Origin: Thermoplasmata archaeon
GTDB lineage: Archaea; Thermoplasmatota; SW-10-69-26; JACQPN01; JAJPHT01
Assembly: GCA_034667685.1 (NCBI GenBank)
Contig: JAXDQU010000106.1
Span: forward strand, 84,043 to 148,042
Length of the DNA: 64,000 nt
Reading direction: 5' to 3'
Below are positions 1,977 through 21,033 of the stretch, one piece after another. A program made the position numbers and the translations under genes. Every line of letters starts with the position of its first letter. The first letter of the stretch is position 1. Under the pieces are notes generated by a model that did not search any database, was not told the origin of the DNA, and saw nothing but the letters and a program-made list of their open reading frames with translations.

Positions 1977-4900
1977 CTAAAGCCTTCTCCGGAGGTCGCC
2001 GCGAGTGCCCAGCGCGGCCAGCGCGAGCGCGGCCAGCGGCGCGAGGACGGGCATCGGCGCGTCGTGCGGGCTGGCCGGGGGTGGCGTGCCGTCCGTGCCC
2101 CAGCCCGAGAAGCGCGAGTCGCCCAGCGGGCGCACGATGCGGACGCTCCAGCCGCGGGCTTCGCTCGCCGCGCCCTCGGGGCCCACGGCGCGCAGGGCGA
2201 CGTCGTGGTGCCCGGCCGGCAGGTCGCGGGTGGTGGCGTCGAGGCGCCATTCGCCGCCGCTGGCGTTGAGCGGGGTCCACGTGCCCGCGTCGAGGCGCCA
2301 TTCGACGGTGCCGTTGTCCGCGAGGCGCCCCGCGGCGTGGACGAGGCCGTACGCGATGGGCGCGGGGGGCTCGTCGACGACGAGCGCGGGCGGGGGGCGC
2401 GCGACCTGGATCTCGACGCGCGCCTCCTTCTTGGCGTCGATGCCGTGGTAGGCGTCGACGAGCGCGACGTGGAGGCCGGGCGTCATGCCGCGCAGCGGGA
2501 CGGTGAAGGCGATCGGCTGGCCCACGACGTCCTGCCAGGGTCCCGCGTCGAGGCGCCAGCGGACGGCGGTGACGTTCTGCGGGTGGTAGGCGCTGCCCTG
2601 GAGGTCGTAGTCGGCGCCGACGGGGTCGAGGGGCGCGTTGGCCACGGTCAGGACGAGCGCCTGGTCCTGCGCGCCGTTGGCGATGGTGATCGGGACGCTG
2701 GCGAGGCCTTCGGCGCCGGCTTCGTCGACGACGCGGGCGACGAGCCGGTAGTCGCCGTCGGGGAACGCGGTGCTATCAAGGAGGAGCCGCCAGTTGGCGA
2801 GGCCCTGCGCGGGCATCCAGGGGGAGGGGCCCAGCGCGTAGGTGCGCGTGCCGGAGCGGAGCTGGACCTCCACCCGGGTGAGGTTGCGGGGGCCTTCGGC
2901 GTGGCCCAGGAGGGCGACGGAGCCGCGGAGCGGGTCGCTGGGGAGGGGTTTCCCGATGGCGATCGTGGGGGGCGCGAGGCTGGGCGGGGCGGGGTCGACC
3001 TGGATGGCGAGCTGGGCGGTGGCGGTGGCGCCTTCGTCGTCGAGGACGGTGAGCTTGGCGGCGTAGACGCCCGGCGCGGGGTAGACGAACGTGCAGCGGG
3101 TGGCGGCGCCGTCGCAGTCGGGGAGGCCGTCGCCGTCGGCGTCGAATTGATAGCGCGCGAGGCGGCCGTCGGGGTCGCGGCTCGCGTCGGCGACGAGCGT
3201 GAGGGGCCAGCCGGAGACGCCGGTGGGCGCGGTGAGGTTGGCCTGCGGGGGGACGTTGGCGATGCGCAGCGTGGTGTTGGCCTCCGCGGTGGCGCCGGCG
3301 GCGTTGCGCGCGACGAGGGAGACGACGTAGTCGCCCGCCCTGGCGTAGGCGTGCGTGGGCTCCAGCCCGGTCGCGTTCGTTCCGTCGCCGAAGTCCCACG
3401 CGAGCGAGGCGATCCCGCCCATGGCGTCGTTGCCCACGGCGCGGAACGAGACGGGCTCCAGCGCGCGCGGGTCGGCGGGCGCCGCGAGGATGGCGCGCAC
3501 CTGCGGCGCGGCGTCGCCCACGAGGATTTGGCGGGTCAGGTTGGCGCTCAGGCCCCAGTCGTCGGTGATCGTGAGCGTCACGTCGTACGCGCCGGGGGCG
3601 GGGAAGGCGTGCGCGACGTCGCGCCCCCAGGCGCCGAAGCTCCACGACCAGTTGACGATATCACCGTCGGGCTTGCGCGAGAGGTCGAGGAAGCCCACGG
3701 GCTCGCCGGCGCGCGGGGCCAGGGGCGCCCAGGTGAACGCCGGCGTGGGCGCGACGTCCTGCACGTCGACGAGCTGTGTCGCGGTCGCGGTGGCGCCGGG
3801 CGCGTCCTGCACGGTGAGGGAGACGACGTGCGGCCCGCGCGCGACGAAGCGGTGCGTGGGGCTCGCGTCCGCGCTGGCGGCTCCGTCGCCGAAATCCCAG
3901 TGGCGCGCCACGAGCTGCCCCTCGGGGTCGAACGAGTCGTCCTCGAAGCTCACCTCATCGAGCAGCGTGGGCGCGGCGGGCGCGAGGCGGAGGCGCGCGA
4001 CGGGCGGCGCGTTGGCGATGGCGACGAGCGCGCTGGCGACGGGGCTCGCGGCGCCGCGGTCGTCGTAGACGGTGAGGTTCGCGCGGTAGAGCCCCTCCTG
4101 CGCGTAGCGGTGCGCCACGCTTGGCGAGGCGCCGCTCGCGGTCGCGCCGTCGCCGAACTGCCAGGCGTAGCGGACCACGCGCCCGTCGGCGTCGGAGGCG
4201 TCGGCCCGGAACGAGGTGTCCGCGACCGCGAGCCCCGCGTCGACGTGGAGCGCGGCGATGGGGGCCCGGTTGAGGGCGACGAGCGAGGCGTCGAGCGTGG
4301 CGGCGCGGCCGTGGTCGTCGTGCGCGAGGACGCGCAGCGCGTGGCCGCCAGGCGAGGCGAGCGCGACCTGCGCGGTGGCGCCCCGCGCGACGTCGACGCC
4401 ATCGAGCGTCCAATGCGCGTCGGGATCGGCGGGCGCCAGGGAGAACGACAGCGGCGTCCCGGTGGGGCGCGGCGCCTCGTCGCCCGCGATGCCGGCGGAG
4501 CGGGGCGTCCGCACCGCGAAGGCGGACTCGCGCGGCGCGCCCTGCTGGCCGGCGCCGTCCACGGGCGTCGCGCGGACGACGTGCGTGCCCGAAAGGAGGC
4601 CGTCGACCTGCACCTGCCACGTCCACGCGCCGCCGTGCGCGGGTGCCGAGACGGGGGGCGCATCGTCGAGCGAGACGAGCACGCGCGCCGTGGAGGGGGA
4701 GACGACGCCGCGCGCGAGGATGCACGGCCCGGGGCACGAAGGATCGCCCGCGGAGCCGAACGCGTCGCCAGGTTGGGGCGCCTGGATCGCGAGCGTGGGC
4801 GGCGGGGTCGCGCCCGCGGCGACGTCGGACAGGGCCGGGAGGCTCGTCGCGTCGTCGCGGTGCGCGATCGCCACGAGGCGCGTGAGGCCCGCGGGGAGGT

Positions 4901-5498
4901 CGACGCTCGCGCGCCAGGCGGAGCCCACGAGCGTCGCGGGGATCGTCCGGTCGCCGACGCGCACCTCCACGCTCGTGGCGTTGAGCGCGAGCCCGGCGAC
5001 CTCGGTGGGGCCCGCGGGAAGCCCCGCGCCGTCGGGGGGCGCCGCGATGCGCGCGGTGGGGGGCGCGTCCGGCGCGGCGCGGACGAGGGCGCGCGCGGGC
5101 AGGGAGAACGAGTCGCCGTCCCAGGCACGGACCTCGAGAAGATGGTCGCCCGCGTCGAGGTCGAGCGGCGCGAGGAAGGGGACCTCGGGCGCGCCGCGGA
5201 CGACGTCGGGCAGGCTCTCCCAGCGGCCGCCATCGACGCGCAGCTCGACGTCGTGCACCGTCTGGCCCGGAGCGGCGCGCGCGTCCCCCGCGAGCGTCAC
5301 GTGGAGCGCCACGCCCTCGCCGTCCGCGGGCGCGTCGAGGCGGAGCGTGGGCGGCGCCGGAAGCGCATTGGCCGCGAGCGGATCCACGAGGAACGCCGCG
5401 AGGCGCGAGCCCTGGCCGATCACCAGCGGGATCGACGCGGCGAGGAGGACGCCCAGGACGAGGAGCGCAATCCACCCCGGCCGCTTCAGAGGAGGCAC
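1977..5498 (-). CDS. Large cell-surface protein with multiple PKD and Ig-like domains
   Basis: N-terminal signal/TM; repeated PKD motifs (WQFGDG, WDFGDG, H-x-Y...G-x-Y-x-V-x-LTV-x-D); C-terminal Pro linker, hydrophobic helix and basic tail (RRRL). Confidence 0.85.
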   Translation of the reverse strand: MPPLKRPGWIALLVLGVLLAASIPLVIGQGSRLAAFLVDPLAANALPAPPTLRLDAPADGEGVALHVTLAGDARAAPGQTVHDVELRVDGGRWESLPDVVRGAPEVPFLAPLDLDAGDHLLEVRAWDGDSFSLPARALVRAAPDAPPTARIAAPPDGAGLPAGPTEVAGLALNATSVEVRVGDRTIPATLVGSAWRASVDLPAGLTRLVAIAHRDDATSLPALSDVAAGATPPPTLAIQAPQPGDAFGSAGDPSCPGPCILARGVVSPSTARVLVSLDDAPPVSAPAHGGAWTWQVQVDGLLSGTHVVRATPVDGAGQQGAPRESAFAVRTPRSAGIAGDEAPRPTGTPLSFSLAPADPDAHWTLDGVDVARGATAQVALASPGGHALRVLAHDDHGRAATLDASLVALNRAPIAALHVDAGLAVADTSFRADASDADGRVVRYAWQFGDGATASGASPSVAHRYAQEGLYRANLTVYDDRGAASPVASALVAIANAPPVARLRLAPAAPTLLDEVSFEDDSFDPEGQLVARHWDFGDGAASADASPTHRFVARGPHVVSLTVQDAPGATATATQLVDVQDVAPTPAFTWAPLAPRAGEPVGFLDLSRKPDGDIVNWSWSFGAWGRDVAHAFPAPGAYDVTLTITDDWGLSANLTRQILVGDAAPQVRAILAAPADPRALEPVSFRAVGNDAMGGIASLAWDFGDGTNATGLEPTHAYARAGDYVVSLVARNAAGATAEANTTLRIANVPPQANLTAPTGVSGWPLTLVADASRDPDGRLARYQFDADGDGLPDCDGAATRCTFVYPAPGVYAAKLTVLDDEGATATAQLAIQVDPAPPSLAPPTIAIGKPLPSDPLRGSVALLGHAEGPRNLTRVEVQLRSGTRTYALGPSPWMPAQGLANWRLLLDSTAFPDGDYRLVARVVDEAGAEGLASVPITIANGAQDQALVLTVANAPLDPVGADYDLQGSAYHPQNVTAVRWRLDAGPWQDVVGQPIAFTVPLRGMTPGLHVALVDAYHGIDAKKEARVEIQVARPPPALVVDEPPAPIAYGLVHAAGRLADNGTVEWRLDAGTWTPLNASGGEWRLDATTRDLPAGHHDVALRAVGPEGAASEARGWSVRIVRPLGDSRFSGWGTDGTPPPASPHDAPMPVLAPLAALALAALGTRGDLRRRL

Positions 5499-5929
5499 GC
5501 CCCGTCGCCGCAGCCCGAGGAGAGGTCGGTGATCGTGAACGCCGCGGGCTCCTGGCCGCAGTCGACCTGATGGCCCGCGAGGCGGACCGTGATATCAAAA
5601 CGCGCGCCCGCGATCGGGTCGACGCTCAGCGTCCACGCCCCCTCGTCGAGGATCGCGCCCTGGCCCGGGAGCGGAAGCGGGGAGGAGATCGTGCGCTCGC
5701 CGTGGGTGGCGCGCATCGCGAAGAGCGCCGGGCCCGCCTCGGTGGCATCGACGCAGACCACGACGCCCGCGGGGACCTCGACGCGCCACGACGCGGCGTC
5801 GAGCGGGGTGGGGTCGGCCACGAGACCCCGGACGTGGCGCGTGGCGACCGAGGCGATCTCGCCGCCCGCGAGCGGAACGAGGAGCGCCGCGGCGACCAGG
5901 ATGGGGACAAGCCTCGCGCTGGCTCGCAT
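5486..5929 (-). CDS. Secreted hypothetical protein, upstream of and overlapping the PKD gene
   Basis: MRASARLVPILVAAALLVPLAGG signal peptide; typical codon usage. Confidence 0.65.
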   Translation of the reverse strand: MRASARLVPILVAAALLVPLAGGEIASVATRHVRGLVADPTPLDAASWRVEVPAGVVVCVDATEAGPALFAMRATHGERTISSPLPLPGQGAILDEGAWTLSVDPIAGARFDITVRLAGHQVDCGQEPAAFTITDLSSGCGDGACLL

Positions 5930-6220
5930 GCACGCCTCCACCCTGCCAGGCAGCCCGGACGGGGATACGGTTTCGCGTGTCACGCCGAGGTGCACGCAGC
6001 TTGTACGTGACTTCGGTGACTCAGACCGGCAGAACCGGACTCGCTTAACTCAGGCTCAGGAATGCCCATTTCTTTTTCCTTTTCTCTGGAACCGCCCGAA
6101 GAATGCGCTTCAGGCACCGGCGATCTCGGCCCGGCATTCCTGGCTGGTCGGGGCGAGGGCCTCTGGGCCGCCGGAGGGGCGAAACGAGGCGTATTCTAGT
6201 GCGAAATCCAAACCGGCCAG

Positions 6221-6266
6221 ATTTAACTAGGGAAGCAACTAGACGACCAACTAGGTGAGTCACTAG
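6221..6266 (+). promoter_or_regulatory. TATA-like box (ATTTAA) overlapping four (A/C)ACTAG boxes at 12-bp period
   Basis: AACTAG at 6225, 6237 and 6249, CACTAG at 6261, directly before the ATG at 6267; an extra CTAG at 6196. Confidence 0.7.
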
Positions 6267-6584
6267 ATGGGGCTCGAAACGCGCGTCTGGCGCACCGGAT
6301 TCGAATCCAACCTCCTCACGACCGTGCCGAAGGCCGTCCGCGTCCAGTTGAGCCTCGGGCCGGCGGACCGGCTGCGCTGGAACGTCGAGGGGGGTTACGC
6401 GCGGGTGACCAAGGCCGGGGCGGAGGAGGGGGAGGCCACCACCTACCGGCTCTACAAGCAGACGCGCGGGAACAGCCTCTACACCTCCCTCCCGGCCGCG
6501 GTCGCGGAGCAGCTCCGCATGAACGAGCGCTCCCGCGTCGAATGGGAGCTCCAGGGGACGGCCGCCCATGTCCGCCGCGCTTGA
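6267..6584 (+). CDS. Tandem AbrB/MazE/SpoVT-type (swapped-hairpin) DNA-binding protein
   Basis: Two internal AbrB-like repeats: LLTTVPKAVRVQLSLGPADRLRWNVEG and SLYTSLPAAVAEQLRMNERSRVEWELQG. Confidence 0.75.
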   Translation: MGLETRVWRTGFESNLLTTVPKAVRVQLSLGPADRLRWNVEGGYARVTKAGAEEGEATTYRLYKQTRGNSLYTSLPAAVAEQLRMNERSRVEWELQGTAAHVRRA

Positions 6585-7431
6585 CCGGCTCGGCAACGCC
6601 CCCGCCGTCCTCCTGGTCGAGGCGCCGCCCGACGCGAAGCGCTTCCGCGCGCTCACGCGCATCAGCGACGACAAGCTGCGCAGCATCCCGCAGCAGGCGC
6701 GCGAATGCGCCGCCTACGTCGAGGGCCTCGGCGCGCCCGCCGCGCTCGACGGCGTCTACAACGTCGGCGAGCACAGCGGCTTCAGCATGACCCAGAGCCC
6801 CATCTACCAGCAGCTTCTCGCCGACGCGCGCAACGGCCGGTTCCACGCGCTGGTCGTCCGCGACAGCAGCCGCCTGGGGCGCGACTACTGGGAGAAGATG
6901 GGCACGCTGCGCGACCTGCGCGCCGCCAAGATCGAGTTCCACGTCATCGAGGACGGCGGCGCGTTCGACTTCGAGGACCGCCTCCACAAGGTCAAGAGCT
7001 GGGCGAGCACGTGGGCCGACGAGGAGAAGAAGCGCGAGGAGATCCGCAAGTCGCTGCGCGCCACGCAAGCCTTGCGTGACATGGGCCTTCCCACCGGCCG
7101 CCCGCCCTACGGCTACCGCAGCGCGAAGGACGCCAGGCTGGGCCGGCGCGTCTGGCGGGCGGAGCCGCGCGAGGCCGACGCCGTGCGCGCCCTCTACGCC
7201 GCGCTCCTGGCCGAGCCCGCCGCCAACCTCAGCGCGCTGGGCCGCGAGCACGACCTCACGCCCAGCCAGGTCGACCGGATCCTCGGCAACCCGTGCTACC
7301 AGGGCGGTTTCCTCTGGGAGGGCGCATTCCGCGCCGCGGCGCCGGAGGTCGTGCCGGCGCTGGTGAGCCCGGAAGAGTTCGCGCGCGTCCAGGCCATCCG
7401 GGCCCAGCGTCGCCGCGCGCCGCGCGAGTGA
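6568..7431 (+). CDS. Serine recombinase (resolvase catalytic domain plus short recombinase DNA-binding domain)
   Basis: RIS catalytic motif, SIPQQ, SGF, RLGRD, G-x-P-x-G-x-PPYGY, IL-x-NP-x-Y-x-G, PALVSPEEF. Confidence 0.85.
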   Translation: MSAALDRLGNAPAVLLVEAPPDAKRFRALTRISDDKLRSIPQQARECAAYVEGLGAPAALDGVYNVGEHSGFSMTQSPIYQQLLADARNGRFHALVVRDSSRLGRDYWEKMGTLRDLRAAKIEFHVIEDGGAFDFEDRLHKVKSWASTWADEEKKREEIRKSLRATQALRDMGLPTGRPPYGYRSAKDARLGRRVWRAEPREADAVRALYAALLAEPAANLSALGREHDLTPSQVDRILGNPCYQGGFLWEGAFRAAAPEVVPALVSPEEFARVQAIRAQRRRAPRE

Positions 7432-7443
7432 ACGGCCGCGCCC

Positions 7444-8451
7444 TCACGGCGAGGGCTTCTGCTGCTGGAAGCCCAGGAGGACGTTCATGAGGTCCGGCGA
7501 GCGGATGCGTTGCGTCATCTCGCGGCGCTCCAGGATCTTCTGCACGTTCTCGAAGAGCGTCTCGTCGATGACGGGCGGGATCACGTGCGGCTCGGCGCGG
7601 ACGAACTCGCCCTTCCAGTTGAATCCGCCCGTGTAAGCGCGGTTGCGGAGGATCTTGCGCAGCAATTGCCGCGAGACGCCGAAGCGGCGGCTCAGGCTGC
7701 TGAACTCCTCGTAGGGCTCCTCGACGAGCGAGGCGAAGATGGCGCGCACCTTGGCGGCCTCGGGCGTCTGGCGCCACACCTTCCGCCGGGAGACGGGGTC
7801 GATGGCGGGCTCGTAGCCGTACGGGAGCGAGGTGGTGGGGAAGCGCGCGTCGCGGATCGCCTGGGTGGCGCGCATGCTCTTGCGGATCTCCTCGAGCTTC
7901 TTGCCCTCGTCGCCCCACGTGTTGGCGAACGAGCGCACCTTGCTCATGCTGTCCTCGTAGTCGAAGAAGCCGCCGTCCTCCAGGATGTGCAGCTCGACCT
8001 TGGCGCGGCGCAGGTCGCGGATGGTGCCCATCTTCTCCCAGTAGTCGCGGCCCAGGCGCGCGCCGTCGCGGGCCACGAGCGCGTCGAACTGCCCGGCCTC
8101 CGCGTCGTGGAGGACCTGGCTCATGATGGGGCTCTGGTCGATCTTGAAGCCGCTGTGCTCGCCGAGGCTGTAGACGCGGTCGATGATGCCGCCGATCTCC
8201 TCGGCGTCGGCGCGGCGCGCGCCCGCGACGGCGTCGCCCCAGGCGTAGCGGACGCACTCCTTGACCTGCTGGGGGATCGAGAGCAGCTTGTCGTCGCTGA
8301 TGCGCACGAGGACGCGGAAGACCTTCGAGCCGCGGGCCTTGAGCGCGGCGGTCTCTTCGGGACGGAGGAGGTCGATCACGCGCGGCTCACGGTCGTCGGC
8401 GTCCTTCAGGCGCCGGTCGACCTCCGCAAGAAACGCGTCCAGGGTGTGCAT
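7444..8451 (-). CDS. Serine recombinase, convergent paralog of 6568-7431
   Basis: VRISDDKLLSIPQQ, GEHSGF, RLGRDYWEKMGT, PYGY, ILRNRAYTG, PVIDETLF. Confidence 0.85.
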   Translation of the reverse strand: MHTLDAFLAEVDRRLKDADDREPRVIDLLRPEETAALKARGSKVFRVLVRISDDKLLSIPQQVKECVRYAWGDAVAGARRADAEEIGGIIDRVYSLGEHSGFKIDQSPIMSQVLHDAEAGQFDALVARDGARLGRDYWEKMGTIRDLRRAKVELHILEDGGFFDYEDSMSKVRSFANTWGDEGKKLEEIRKSMRATQAIRDARFPTTSLPYGYEPAIDPVSRRKVWRQTPEAAKVRAIFASLVEEPYEEFSSLSRRFGVSRQLLRKILRNRAYTGGFNWKGEFVRAEPHVIPPVIDETLFENVQKILERREMTQRIRSPDLMNVLLGFQQQKPSP

Positions 8452-8499
8452 CCGAGGCTTAACACCCGGAGCGCGATGAAGAAGGTGCCGATGTTGAAA

Positions 8500-9018
8500 T
8501 CAGGCGACGCTCTCGGGCCGGCCCGCGAAGAGCGCGGCGAGCCCCCAGCCCAGCGGGACGAGGACGTTGCCGAACATGAACGCGAAGACGCCTTCCTGCG
8601 CGTCGCCCACGAGCCAGAGGATGCCGGTGACGCAGGCGATGGCGAGGCCGGCGCGCGCCACGCTCAGCGTCGCCGCGCCGCGCCGGGCGCCGTAGGCCGC
8701 GATCGCGAGGCCGAGCGCGGAGCCGAGGGTGGCGAGGGTCACGGGCCCGACGTTGGTGAGGTGGCCCTGCGCGGCGTAGGCGACGATGTAGCCGACGTGC
8801 GCGGCGGCGGCGACGGCGAGGCCGACCGGGCTGGCGGCGTTCTGGCCCTCGGCGTCGGTGTAGAACCCGAACGCGGCGATGGCGAGGCCGATGCCCGCGA
8901 CGAGGACCATCAACGCGGGAAAGAGGCCGTGGTCCACGCCCAGGAAGGCGATCGCCCATTGGGCTTCGCCCACGCCGGCCAGCGCCAGCGCGATGGCCGT
9001 GAGAAGGCCCGTCCGCAT
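8500..9018 (-). CDS. Multi-pass membrane protein of unknown function
   Basis: About six hydrophobic segments; TTAA box about 25 nt upstream of the start. Confidence 0.7.
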   Translation of the reverse strand: MRTGLLTAIALALAGVGEAQWAIAFLGVDHGLFPALMVLVAGIGLAIAAFGFYTDAEGQNAASPVGLAVAAAAHVGYIVAYAAQGHLTNVGPVTLATLGSALGLAIAAYGARRGAATLSVARAGLAIACVTGILWLVGDAQEGVFAFMFGNVLVPLGWGLAALFAGRPESVA

Positions 9019-9058: not shown

Positions 9059-10378
9059 TTAGCCGAAGGCCGCGGCGGGGCTCTTCATCGCCTCGCGCAG
9101 CAGGCACGTGGCGTAGCTTCCCTTCAGCAGGAAGAAGCGGAGCAGGAGGCGCTCGCCGGCGTCGTCGGCGCCCGCGTCCCACGAGACGGGGCCCAGGGGA
9201 GCCAGAAGCTCGCGGCGGGTGCCGAAGCTGGCGACCTCCGGGAGGTGCGGGATGCGGAAGTCGCGCTGCCGATAGCCCGCCTCGGCGAGGACGTCGCGCT
9301 CGATCTCGCCCATGCGCCCTTCCGCCAGGCGCGAGCCGGTGCCCGCGATGGCGCCGGTGACGAGCGCCGCGCCCTTCGCGCACAGGCGCGCCACGCGCGC
9401 GTGGTTGAGCGGCGTGACGGCGTGCAGGCGCTCCTTGTCGGGACGCCCCTCCGCGTCGAGCCCCACGACGAGATCGCCGGGGCGCGGCTCGTTGAGGCCG
9501 ATGCCTTCGCCCATGCGGCGGCTCACGATGCGGTTGAACAGGAGGCTCTGCGCGGCGTAGACGAACATGGTGCGCAGGTTGCTGGGCAGCGACAGGAGCG
9601 CGCCCTCGAAGTCGCGCGGGTGGCGCGCGAGGTGCTCCAGCATCGTGCGCTCGAAGCCCGCGTAGCGCGGGAAGCGCGCGAAGCTGGACTCGGCGTCGCG
9701 CGTGGCGTCGTAGTGCGCGCGCGCCTCGCGCAGCTCGTCGGACTCGGCCGGCTGCGGGTTGCCCACGTAGAGGCGCACGGCCTCCTCCAGGTCGCCCCGG
9801 ACGATCTGCTCGCCCACGAGGTGCGTCACGGGGCGCACGACGCCGAAGCGCTGCACGCCGAAGTAGTTGGGGAAGCCCCCCTCGGCCTCGATGCGCGCGA
9901 GGATCGCGTGCAGGCTCTCCGCGGCCTCCTTGAGGGGGACGTCCGTCTCGCGCAGCGCGATGACGAAGCGGTTGCCCACCAGCTCGCCGATCTTGGGCGC
10001 GCGGTCCACGCGGCGCGTCTCCAGCACCTCGACGTCCTTGAGGTCCAGCGCGCGCACGCGCTCCTCGGGGGCGCGGAGGCTGACGTACTGCGTCGTGACG
10101 GCGCGCTTGTCCTTCGTTCCGGCGAAGAAGATCGTCTCGCGCGGCACGTTCAGGACGCGCGCCAGCTCGCCCATGAGGCGGTTGGTCTCCCAGTTGCGCA
10201 CGCGCAGCGCGGCCACCGTGTACTTGCCCTCCGCCACGGGCGCGGGGAAGGCGAGCGGGACCTCCTCGACGACGAAGTCCTCGGGGCGGCTCTTCAGCCG
10301 GCCGCCGGTGCCGGGCAACGCCGCGGTGAGGTAGCGTTCGAGCCCGAGCGCCTTCTCAAAATCGCCGGGCTCGATCAT
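9059..10378 (-). CDS. truD: tRNA pseudouridine(13) synthase TruD/Pus7
   Basis: PEDFVVEE, AGTKDKRAVTTQ, GNRF, PNYFGVQRFG, KGSYATCLLRE. Confidence 0.95.
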   Translation of the reverse strand: MIEPGDFEKALGLERYLTAALPGTGGRLKSRPEDFVVEEVPLAFPAPVAEGKYTVAALRVRNWETNRLMGELARVLNVPRETIFFAGTKDKRAVTTQYVSLRAPEERVRALDLKDVEVLETRRVDRAPKIGELVGNRFVIALRETDVPLKEAAESLHAILARIEAEGGFPNYFGVQRFGVVRPVTHLVGEQIVRGDLEEAVRLYVGNPQPAESDELREARAHYDATRDAESSFARFPRYAGFERTMLEHLARHPRDFEGALLSLPSNLRTMFVYAAQSLLFNRIVSRRMGEGIGLNEPRPGDLVVGLDAEGRPDKERLHAVTPLNHARVARLCAKGAALVTGAIAGTGSRLAEGRMGEIERDVLAEAGYRQRDFRIPHLPEVASFGTRRELLAPLGPVSWDAGADDAGERLLLRFFLLKGSYATCLLREAMKSPAAAFG

Positions 10379-12529: not shown

Positions 12530-12750
12530 GCGGCACCTGCACGCTCGCCCCGACGCCTGGTCGCGCCAGCCGGCGCCGGGCGCCGCCGCGAAGAACGCTC
12601 TAGAGCATTGTTGGGCAAGGTGGCGCAAGGTAGCGCGAGGCGGCGCCGGGTCGGTGCAGCCAGCGCCGCGTGCCGCATGGCGCCACTTTCGGGCACCTCC
12701 GTTGCGCATTGCCTTCCTCGGGTGCCGTCGTCGGGTGGTTTGGCGCTTCT
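12530..12750. repeat. Non-coding element copy A: CTAG-centred 22-bp pseudo-palindrome with phased GGCGCC-like boxes
   Basis: AAGAACGCTCTAGAGCATTGTT at 12591-12612; GGCGCC-like hexamers at 12532, 12552, 12572, 12622, 12642, 12662; homologous to 20770-20965. Confidence 0.7.
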
Positions 12751-20769: not shown

Positions 20770-20965
20770 GGCGCCTGGACGAGCGACCCGGCGCCGGCCC
20801 GAAGAAGGAGGCGCCGCGTAGGCCCAACCGGCGCCGCGTGCCTGCGCCAGGCACCACGTCGATGCACCAGGCGCCGGGTCGCGCAACGGGGCGCCGGGTG
20901 GCGCGACCTTGCCGCACCTTCACCATCGACGCTCTAGAGGATTGTTGCATTCGCGCGGCGCCTGG
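20770..20965. repeat. Non-coding element copy B (inverted relative to copy A)
   Basis: GGCGCC at 20770, 20790, 20810, 20830, 20870, 20890 and GGCACC at 20850 (exact 20-bp period); ATCGACGCTCTAGAGGATTGTT at 20925-20946. Confidence 0.75.
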
Positions 20966-21033
20966 CGCGAGCGCTTCGTGATATCAGAATCGGGCGTCGC
21001 TGGATTGTTCTCGCGTTCGCTCGGGCGGAGGAG

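Follow-up and report, generated by a model that had tools for sequence, protein, structure and literature searches.

Why does an archaeal chromosome keep two paralogous serine recombinase genes and a small AbrB-like gene side by side, between a surface-protein operon and a block of housekeeping genes, where no mobile element is visible? The locus lies in a window of 64,000 nucleotides from a Thermoplasmata archaeon (contig JAXDQU010000106.1 of assembly GCA_034667685.1; all positions are counted from the first letter of this window) and comprises three genes, abrB, rec1 and rec2, which an initial annotation had read as a domesticated recombination system. We consider it probable that they form a host-fixed, vertically inherited and self-regulated site-specific recombination module acting at its own locus, and not an active mobile element. 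This module occupies a fixed position, diverges in step with its neighbours, is under purifying selection in all three genes, retains intact catalytic motifs and has two locus-specific sets of cis-elements. The genes concerned are listed here, with those of the module before their neighbours.

6267–6584, + strand: abrB, AbrB-like double-domain gene (105 amino acids, aa), from the open reading frame (ORF) list with Pfam and NCBIfam matches
6568–7431, + strand: rec1, short serine recombinase (287 aa), from Pfam; its start shares 17 nt with the end of abrB
7444–8451, − strand: rec2, short serine recombinase (335 aa), from Pfam, structure prediction, Foldseek and the tree
8500–9018, − strand: gene of a 172-aa membrane protein between rec2 and truD, a lineage-specific insert without a Pfam family
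9059–10378, − strand: truD (Pfam TruD, 8e-131), first gene of the housekeeping block truD–rpoL–csl4–methyltransferase that anchors the locus
1977–5995, − strand: PKD-domain surface protein (1173 aa; five Pfam PKD matches) and a 169-aa secreted-looking protein, the divergent neighbour of abrB

The layout is as the initial annotation had described it: the ORF list gives the overlap of abrB with rec1, and the convergent rec1 and rec2 have 12 bp between their stop codons. Its statement that no mobile element is visible also stands, as the closest tRNA in a scan of the window is at 21033, a repeat search gave no convincing direct repeats flanking the module, and the G+C content of the module (0.65–0.74) is like that nearby (0.66–0.80; window overall 65–80%). 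A genome search identified the rec1/rec2 pair as the sole members of their family in the 3.48-Mb genome. The convergent junction is no assembly error, because it is spanned by contigs from three runs, including a run of a separate study.

Conservation and descent of the module

In the following, G000 is the genome under study, G001–G004 belong to the same genus, G006 and G007 to other genera of the family and G008 to the same family, without the module; L numbers denote individual loci or contigs. Matches to rec2 at E ≤ 0.001 occur in 10 of 41 related genomes, including two each in all four same-genus genomes and one each in two genomes of other genera in the family; three weak matches among the 41 genomes (26–32% identity) are other recombinases. 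At E ≤ 1e-20, the family is found in 7/15 genomes of the order, all within one family-level group. The gene order, with the PKD surface-protein operon followed by abrB, rec1 and rec2 and then by truD, rpoL, csl4 and the methyltransferase gene, is shared by G000, G001, G003, G004 and the metagenome contig L028, and the trio has the same two flanks in G002 and L030. G007 has the same flanks around abrB and a single recombinase gene, and in G006 the recombinase is convergent with truD on a 2-kb contig; the G005 contig is uninformative because it ends inside truD. The housekeeping block is conserved across the order, and the fast-evolving PKD operon (26–61% identity) adjoins abrB in G000, G001, G003, G004, L028, L032 and G007. 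The position of the locus is constant in three genera. The proposed domestication is supported by these comparisons: the trio stands at the same locus in 4/4 same-genus genomes, and abrB with one recombinase in another genus, which is not the pattern of an att-bounded element missing from close relatives.

Beyond these genomes, the family stands isolated: a profile search of 1.84 billion representatives returned four clusters at E ≤ 1e-30, with the next at 1e-28, and a word-indexed search gave 76 close recombinase homologues, every one of which, where a source was named, came from Thermoplasmatota. No relatives were found on viral contigs or plasmids, and phage integrases are only 23–28% identical. 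The public record that holds the G003 locus (L020) is titled as a Proteobacteria metagenome-assembled genome; the locus is collinear with its Thermoplasmatota relatives, at 76–92% protein identity.

The initial annotation had treated the convergent arrangement as a feature of the system, which the wider comparison does not support. Seven distinct loci are informative on orientation (L025 repeats G003 and L027 repeats G004, with identical match values), and the layout is convergent in two of them (G000 and G003) and tandem, in the order abrB, rec1, rec2, in the other five (G001, G002, G004, L028 and L030). The inverted segment in G000 and G003 consists of rec2 and about 55 bp of its upstream region, and a single inversion event explains the convergent layout, because these two are sister species, each the closest relative of the other. 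Judged by this distribution, the convergent layout is derived.

We estimated selection as omega, the ratio of nonsynonymous (dN) to synonymous (dS) divergence, by the pairwise Nei–Gojobori method for abrB, rec1, rec2, truD and rpoL, leaving out csl4 and the methyltransferase gene. The extreme G+C content compresses dS, so only the comparison between genes is meaningful in these values:

abrB: range 0.13–0.28, median 0.19
rec2: range 0.07–0.34, median 0.23
rec1: range 0.27–0.58, median 0.38
truD: range 0.26–0.47, median 0.35
rpoL: range 0.18–0.46, median 0.29

By these values, rec2 and abrB are constrained no less than truD, and rec1 to a comparable degree. Pairwise dN, in pairs that are not independent, correlates with that of truD at r 0.85 for rec2, 0.82 for rec1 and 0.82 for rpoL; the short abrB shows no such tracking (0.02). 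None of the module genes contains a stop codon or frameshift in any of the seven loci. The initial annotation had allowed that one recombinase might be a decaying duplicate under relaxed selection; neither is, because selection on both is like that on truD and rpoL.

In a quick maximum-likelihood tree of 79 rows, from which three of the 76 hits shorter than 250 aa and the sequence P0031 were left out, the single-copy recombinases of other genera nest within the rec2 clade (support 100), and everything outside that clade is of the rec1 type. This nesting makes rec2 the lineage held in common with the single-copy genera and rec1 the faster-evolving of the two.

Architecture of the recombinases and the AbrB-like protein

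The products of rec1 and rec2 are paralogous, as first proposed, with 51% identity over 279 columns (E 6e-95). The check by hidden Markov models that had been suggested for them placed both above the cut-offs of the two expected families: Resolvase (PF00239) at 43.3 bits (5e-11) for rec1 and 35.6 bits for rec2, with a cut-off of 23.3, and Recombinase (PF07508) at 25.6 bits (E 1.5e-5) and 28.0 bits, respectively, with a cut-off of 21.1. An AlphaFold2 (AF2) model of rec2 (predicted local distance difference test, pLDDT, 86.9) shows an N-terminal extension (residues 1–40), a catalytic domain (43–160), a long helix (165–201), a recombinase domain (213–315) and one more helix, with the protein ending about 20 residues past the recombinase domain. 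Neither a zinc ribbon nor a coiled coil was found in this model, and Pfam gave no Zn_ribbon_recom match; similarly, the phage integrase profile phrog_95 is covered only at positions 86–372 of 651. The model, the absent zinc-ribbon match and the partial profile match thus agree with the earlier description of both enzymes as short recombinases lacking these two parts.

In Foldseek searches with the rec2 model, the integrases of SPbeta, phiC31 and Bxb1 came first (E 1.4e-10 to 3e-8), ahead of small resolvases; sequence matches to solved structures in the PDB are weak, the best having E about 2e-3. The architecture of small resolvases and invertases, with a helix-turn-helix right after the E-helix and about 180–210 aa in all, is not what we see, since in these proteins of 287 and 335 aa the E-helix leads into a recombinase domain of some 100 residues. 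By sequence and predicted fold, rec1 and rec2 are of the large-serine-recombinase type and stop before the zinc ribbon and coiled coil. This short two-domain form is not unique as such, because the ESM Atlas holds bacterial clusters of 259–326 aa with the same two domains.

Residues R50, S52, R128, D129, R132, G134 and R135 of rec2 are invariant in an alignment of 25 mixed sequences, and their equivalents are invariant in 23 rec1-type sequences; in the same alignments, the invariant columns spell R-x-S-D-D-K-L and R-D-x-x-R-L-G-R-D. From their positions in these motifs, we take the serine of R-x-S to be the nucleophile and the arginines of R-L-x-R to be catalytic. Compared to rec2, rec1 lacks an insertion at residues 70–90 and most of the N-terminal extension. 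The defence-system models of PADLOC gave zero matches among five proteins.

For the AbrB-like protein, the proposed tandem of two AbrB domains is upheld. The C-terminal half (residues 68–96) matches the Pfam family MazE_antitoxin/SpoVT-AbrB (PF04014) at 28.3 bits, above the cut-off of 24.7 and concordant with NCBIfam, and PrlF models match the N-terminal half (residues 18–55) below cut-off. BLASTP gave no alignment between the halves; profile–profile comparison by hhalign related them with 96.6% probability (E 4.7e-10, 38 columns). The structural model, of mediocre quality (pLDDT 68), contains two beta-beta-alpha-beta-beta units, and Foldseek gave no PDB match for it at E ≤ 0.001. We read the protein as a probable single-chain pseudo-dimer and a putative autorepressor. 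Its 97 homologues from a word-indexed search are all at least 59% identical and, where a source is named, come from Thermoplasmatota, the family being confined to this clade. We looked for a toxin partner of the type II toxin–antitoxin kind (MazEF, PrlF-YhaV) and found no toxin family among the neighbours, the gene that overlaps abrB being a recombinase gene. A complex prediction for AbrB and rec1 scored 0.00, which speaks neither for nor against binding.

Cis-elements upstream of abrB and rec2

Three non-coding elements of the window accompany the module:

6181–6189, + strand: box A, GAAACGAGG, conserved more than any other non-coding block in front of abrB and possibly a half-site for protein binding
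6222–6266, + strand: putative core promoter and operator of abrB, TTTAAC with four ACTAG repeats, from repeat period and conservation
8475–8504, − strand: putative promoter region of rec2, in which TATA-like CCTTCTTCATC (8475–8485, + strand) is accompanied by an inverted box A of degenerate sequence, GAAATCAGG (8496–8504)

The DNA in front of abrB has a TATA-like TTTAAC and then four copies of ACTAG at 6226, 6238, 6250 and 6262, at a 12-bp period, the last of which ends at the abrB ATG. The pattern ACTAG-N7-ACTAG has three matches in the window, against none in 100 shuffles, and these three are the only ones in the 3.48-Mb genome, in which even CTAG occurs only 768 times. The array is conserved in seven loci, G007 included, and we infer that it is the operator of the AbrB-like protein. 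Box A is exact in 6/7 aligned abrB-upstream regions, with one mismatch in the seventh, that of G007. As a genome-wide dispersed site, box A was considered and dropped, its 14 genomic copies being close to chance expectation.

Before rec2, a conserved CCTTCTTAATC lies about 25 nt from the ATG, suggesting that the rec2 mRNA may be leaderless. Alignment of eight rec2-upstream regions showed that CTTCTTAAT and CGTTTC are conserved, and the reverse complement of box A, CCTCGTTTC, stands ten nt above CCTTCTTAATC and is perfect in 4/8 loci. In G007, with its single recombinase, the box is part of two palindromes: GGAACGAGG-AGGGGG-CCTCGTTTC upstream of abrB, and GAAACGAGG-ACGCC-CCTCGTTCC between abrB and the recombinase gene. 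The palindrome pattern has exactly two matches in the 3.1-Mb G007 genome, both flanking abrB, and none in four other genomes (control 0). In the genus studied here, only one of the two arms is preserved, its counterpart having diverged to another sequence that is itself partly conserved; purely as a hypothesis, rec1 and rec2 might each bind one arm of the former palindrome.

Elsewhere in G000, the non-coding DNA of the locus has no second copy beyond GC-rich chance matches of 14–24 bp. The initial annotation had grouped the fragments 12530–12750 and 20770–20965 with 6190–6266 as candidate recombination substrates; this grouping does not hold, as neither fragment contains an ACTAG array or a box A, and the motif that they have in common is absent from 6190–6266. 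That motif comprises, in the intergenic regions 12560–12700 and 20770–20950, several GGCGCCGGG-type repeats and then CGCTCTAGAG-N-ATTGTTG (12596–12615 and 20930–20950), and it looks like a recurring promoter-like element of the genome that is unrelated to the recombinase locus. A scan with a bacterial promoter and terminator model was uninformative, the model being not applicable to an archaeon. On the other side of the divergent intergenic region, at 5996–6060 and at the same place in G001, G003, G004 and G007, we observed a conserved TGTACG with a CGTGA or CGTTA partner 7–10 nt away, just upstream of the 169-aa gene of the surface operon; this motif is duplicated in G004 and G007.

Variable DNA beside rec2 and the role of the module

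The DNA beside rec2 is a hot spot of rearrangement, with at least five different contents among eight loci:

G001: a small winged-helix-turn-helix-like gene between rec1 and rec2, and orf196-orf83-PolB between rec2 and truD
G002: the orf196-orf83-PolB genes after rec2
L030: a 618-aa secreted hydrolase between rec1 and rec2
L031: a glyoxalase-like gene after rec2
G000, G003: the 172-aa membrane protein beside rec2
G004, L028: no gene inserted beside rec2

G002 encodes a 40%-identical copy of the membrane protein on a different contig, and searches of G001, G004 and G007 gave none. The PolB block, which encodes a protein of 196–233 aa, one of 83 aa and a divergent family-B DNA polymerase, is single-copy in each of five genomes (L014 6290–9413 in G001; L018 1–1533 in G002; contig C21 49442–52745 in G000, equivalent to L070 5317–8752). 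Two genes that are direct neighbours in G001, G002 and G004 are separated by the block in G000 and G003, and in G007 too it is away from rec2. Because its position differs between the rec2 flank and this other gene pair, at least two moves of the block are implied, one end being the rec2 junction. No common border sequence was found at the edges of the inserted blocks. The genes inserted in G001 are bracketed by 22-bp direct repeats of the GCCACACGGGACGACGCCTGGC type (e.g., L014 4652, 5125, 9415 and 9502), which have 23 matches in that genome (20 on one strand, 12 on the recombinase contig) and 0–2 in four sister genomes. On a larger scale, what lies between the Lhr helicase gene and truD differs from one member of the family to another, and in other families truD is followed by unrelated genes; because this slot varies, the module and the surface-protein operon probably arrived on the same island, after which the module was retained.

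Taken together, a course of events can be proposed. The module would descend from a gene of the large-serine-recombinase type, without zinc ribbon and coiled coil, and would go back to the ancestor of one soil Thermoplasmatota family, probably within an old island. At the first stage, abrB and one recombinase gene would have stood at the 3′ end of truD, and a later duplication in this genus would have given rec1 and rec2. The double-AbrB protein would repress its own operon through the four ACTAG repeats between the TATA-like box and the start codon, and the recombinases would bind GAAACGAGG sites, which are full palindromes flanking abrB in the single-copy genus and a conserved and a diverged arm here. 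Sites so placed upstream of abrB and rec2 would be arranged like a res site beside a resolvase gene, and binding to them could both regulate the genes and support conservative recombination at the locus, with recurrent reshuffling of the rec2 flank, by inversion of the gene itself and by gene blocks coming and going, as the visible evolutionary outcome. The long co-retention of two intact paralogues would fit a possible heteromer of the two recombinases.

Several observations weigh against this proposal. Characterised large serine recombinases require the zinc-ribbon domain for site binding, which bears on whether the short form is active. It is by symmetry alone that ACTAG is assigned to AbrB and GAAACGAGG to the recombinases; the 9-mer by itself is present at chance level in G000 (14 copies), the rec2-side box of G000 and G003 is a degenerate copy sharing bases with the stop codon of the membrane-protein insert, and an RNA hairpin is an alternative role for the second palindrome of G007, which immediately precedes the start of the recombinase gene. 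G006 has no abrB in the 346 bp upstream of its recombinase. Directly after truD, G008 carries an HNH-AP2 endonuclease gene and a 422-aa tyrosine recombinase (L060 3104–5030), and because a different integrative element is held there, the Lhr–truD slot behaves as an island site. As att sites, the 22-bp repeats of G001 were ruled out, being a species-specific dispersed intergenic repeat, and the rearrangements beside rec2 could be ordinary turnover. Finally, assembled contigs of four runs, in which rare inversions or circles are invisible, have the reference arrangement; the listed joints with sides of 20–24 letters look spurious, and no recombination event, target or product was seen.

Comparison with known systems places the module between several of them. 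With large serine integrases (SPbeta SprA, phiC31, Bxb1, A118 and TP901-1), the best structural matches, it shares the catalytic domain, the long E-helix and PF07508; unlike them, its enzymes have only 287–335 aa and no zinc ribbon or coiled coil, and they are fixed in the chromosome, with no phage or conjugative element and no att repeats. CcrA and CcrB of the staphylococcal cassette chromosome (SCC) are likewise paired paralogous serine recombinases, co-oriented as is the ancestral layout here, at the 3′ end of an RNA-modification gene (rlmH there, truD here) and near variable blocks. However, CcrAB are full-length with a zinc ribbon and lie on a mobile island bounded by direct repeats, whereas this locus is host-fixed, with no mobile island and no locus-specific bounding repeats found. 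The inverted copies of a 9-bp motif in G007, with 6- and 5-bp spacings and an upstream position in a divergent intergenic region, resemble the res site of Tn3/gamma-delta resolvases as generally known, and this layout suggests a possible combination of recombination and autoregulation; those resolvases differ in having a small C-terminal helix-turn-helix instead of a recombinase domain and in belonging to transposons, and the sites here are candidates only. SpoIVCA and XisF are large-type serine recombinases kept by their hosts for programmed rearrangement, but each lies on an excisable element that interrupts a gene, while no interrupted gene or delimited element is present here. The AbrB-like protein resembles SpoVT/AbrB, MazE and PrlF proteins in the matches of both halves, in a gene upstream of and overlapping its probable target, and in a putative repeated operator in its own promoter; it differs in having two domains per chain instead of forming a homodimer, in having a recombinase and not a toxin as partner, and in being confined to one clade.

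Archaeal serine recombinases are hardly studied. The passages of a review that treat them describe them as seen in transposons and never fully investigated, and note that most archaea have XerA (PMC8371274). A full-text literature search, judged by title and abstract and not covering supplementary files, found no description of a module like the present one. It is distinct in not being on a transposon, in having been kept by selection across at least three genera, and in representing a natural minimal form with a catalytic and a recombinase domain only. If this short form recombines short sites unique to the locus, it would offer a compact enzyme with a simple site, both as a tool and for the study of site recognition, and the module would also illustrate how two paralogues may share out a once palindromic site.

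None of the roles that the initial annotation had suggested (inversion switch, dimer resolution or programmed rearrangement) has direct support, and we weighed four other explanations of the locus. The recombinases might serve as a gene-capture platform, inserting and excising blocks by rec2 at the 3′ flank of truD as a chromosome-fixed functional analogue of the integron or of CcrAB/SCC at rlmH. The backbone is collinear within the genus, yet both rec2 junctions hold different genes, and a PolB block that is single-copy in five genomes stands in G000 and G003 between genes adjacent in G001, G002 and G004, which would fit such a platform. Nevertheless, we regard it as unlikely, given that the block borders have no att-like sequence in common, that the G001 repeats are dispersed genome-wide, that G000 has no further copy of the non-coding stretches of the locus, and that block sizes and directions vary widely; at least two moves of one block are a small sample and may be ordinary rearrangement. 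A fuller version, in which the short pair under its own AbrB repressor would bind locus-unique GAAACGAGG sites as dimers (of rec2-type subunits in the single-copy genus, of rec1 with rec2 here) and move, invert or excise blocks, including the host PolB block, as a host-absorbed serine-recombinase counterpart of the integron or SCC/CcrAB, seems unlikelier than this general form. The trio could also be the stranded remnant of an old integrated element (surface operon, abrB and integrase), useless to the host and persisting by chance or selfish addiction; AbrB-type genes are common on archaeal plasmids and viruses, the Lhr–truD slot is variable, with the tyrosine-integrase/HNH element of G008 in it, and other families have unrelated genes after truD. 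This is improbable all the same, as purifying selection on the three genes equals or exceeds that on truD and rpoL across genus- and family-level divergence, catalytic residues are invariant, and the seven loci are free of stop codons and frameshifts.

Invertase genes usually stand beside the surface genes that they switch, and here the PKD operon divergently adjoins abrB in all seven loci with the flank present, at 26–61% identity, so that phase variation of this fast-evolving operon through inversion of a promoter-bearing segment has to be weighed; with the intergenic region in the same orientation in 7/7 loci, no bracketing inverted repeats and no alternative junction in the contigs, we think it very improbable. 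Least probable in our view is that the module resolves chromosome or replicon dimers at a single site beside the recombinase gene, in the manner of XerS/difSL but with serine recombinases, Xer/dif enzymes being tyrosine recombinases. The locus is single-copy with candidate sites unique to it, searches for a tyrosine recombinase came up empty in G001 (86% complete) and in G007 (97% complete), the latter lacking any PF00589 match, and XerA exceeds its curated cut-off in 6/41 genomes of the phylum, none of them of this class. However, G000 has an Xer-like gene among housekeeping genes on contig C34 (185 bits against the XerA model, 206 against XerC), and GC skew, in the window and along the 148-kb contig, gives a broad weak maximum that is dominated by gene direction, with no clear terminus. 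Other families of the order lack both XerA and the module, and as the patterns of presence and absence are not complementary, the module as a replacement for XerA was set aside.

Two further features of G000 and its sister species were observed away from the recombinase pair. Just upstream of the orf196-PolB block in G000 and G003 stand perfect or near-perfect palindromes with stems of about 30 bp or more (L070 ~5140–5225, contig C21 of G000; L071 ~9480–9560, contig C40 of G003). Contig C25 of G000 (L041, 35611–36108 and 49333–49707) carries an unrelated third serine recombinase (267 aa, with weak XisF/IS607-like matches) about 13 kb from a tyrosine integrase, and this region may be an integrated element.

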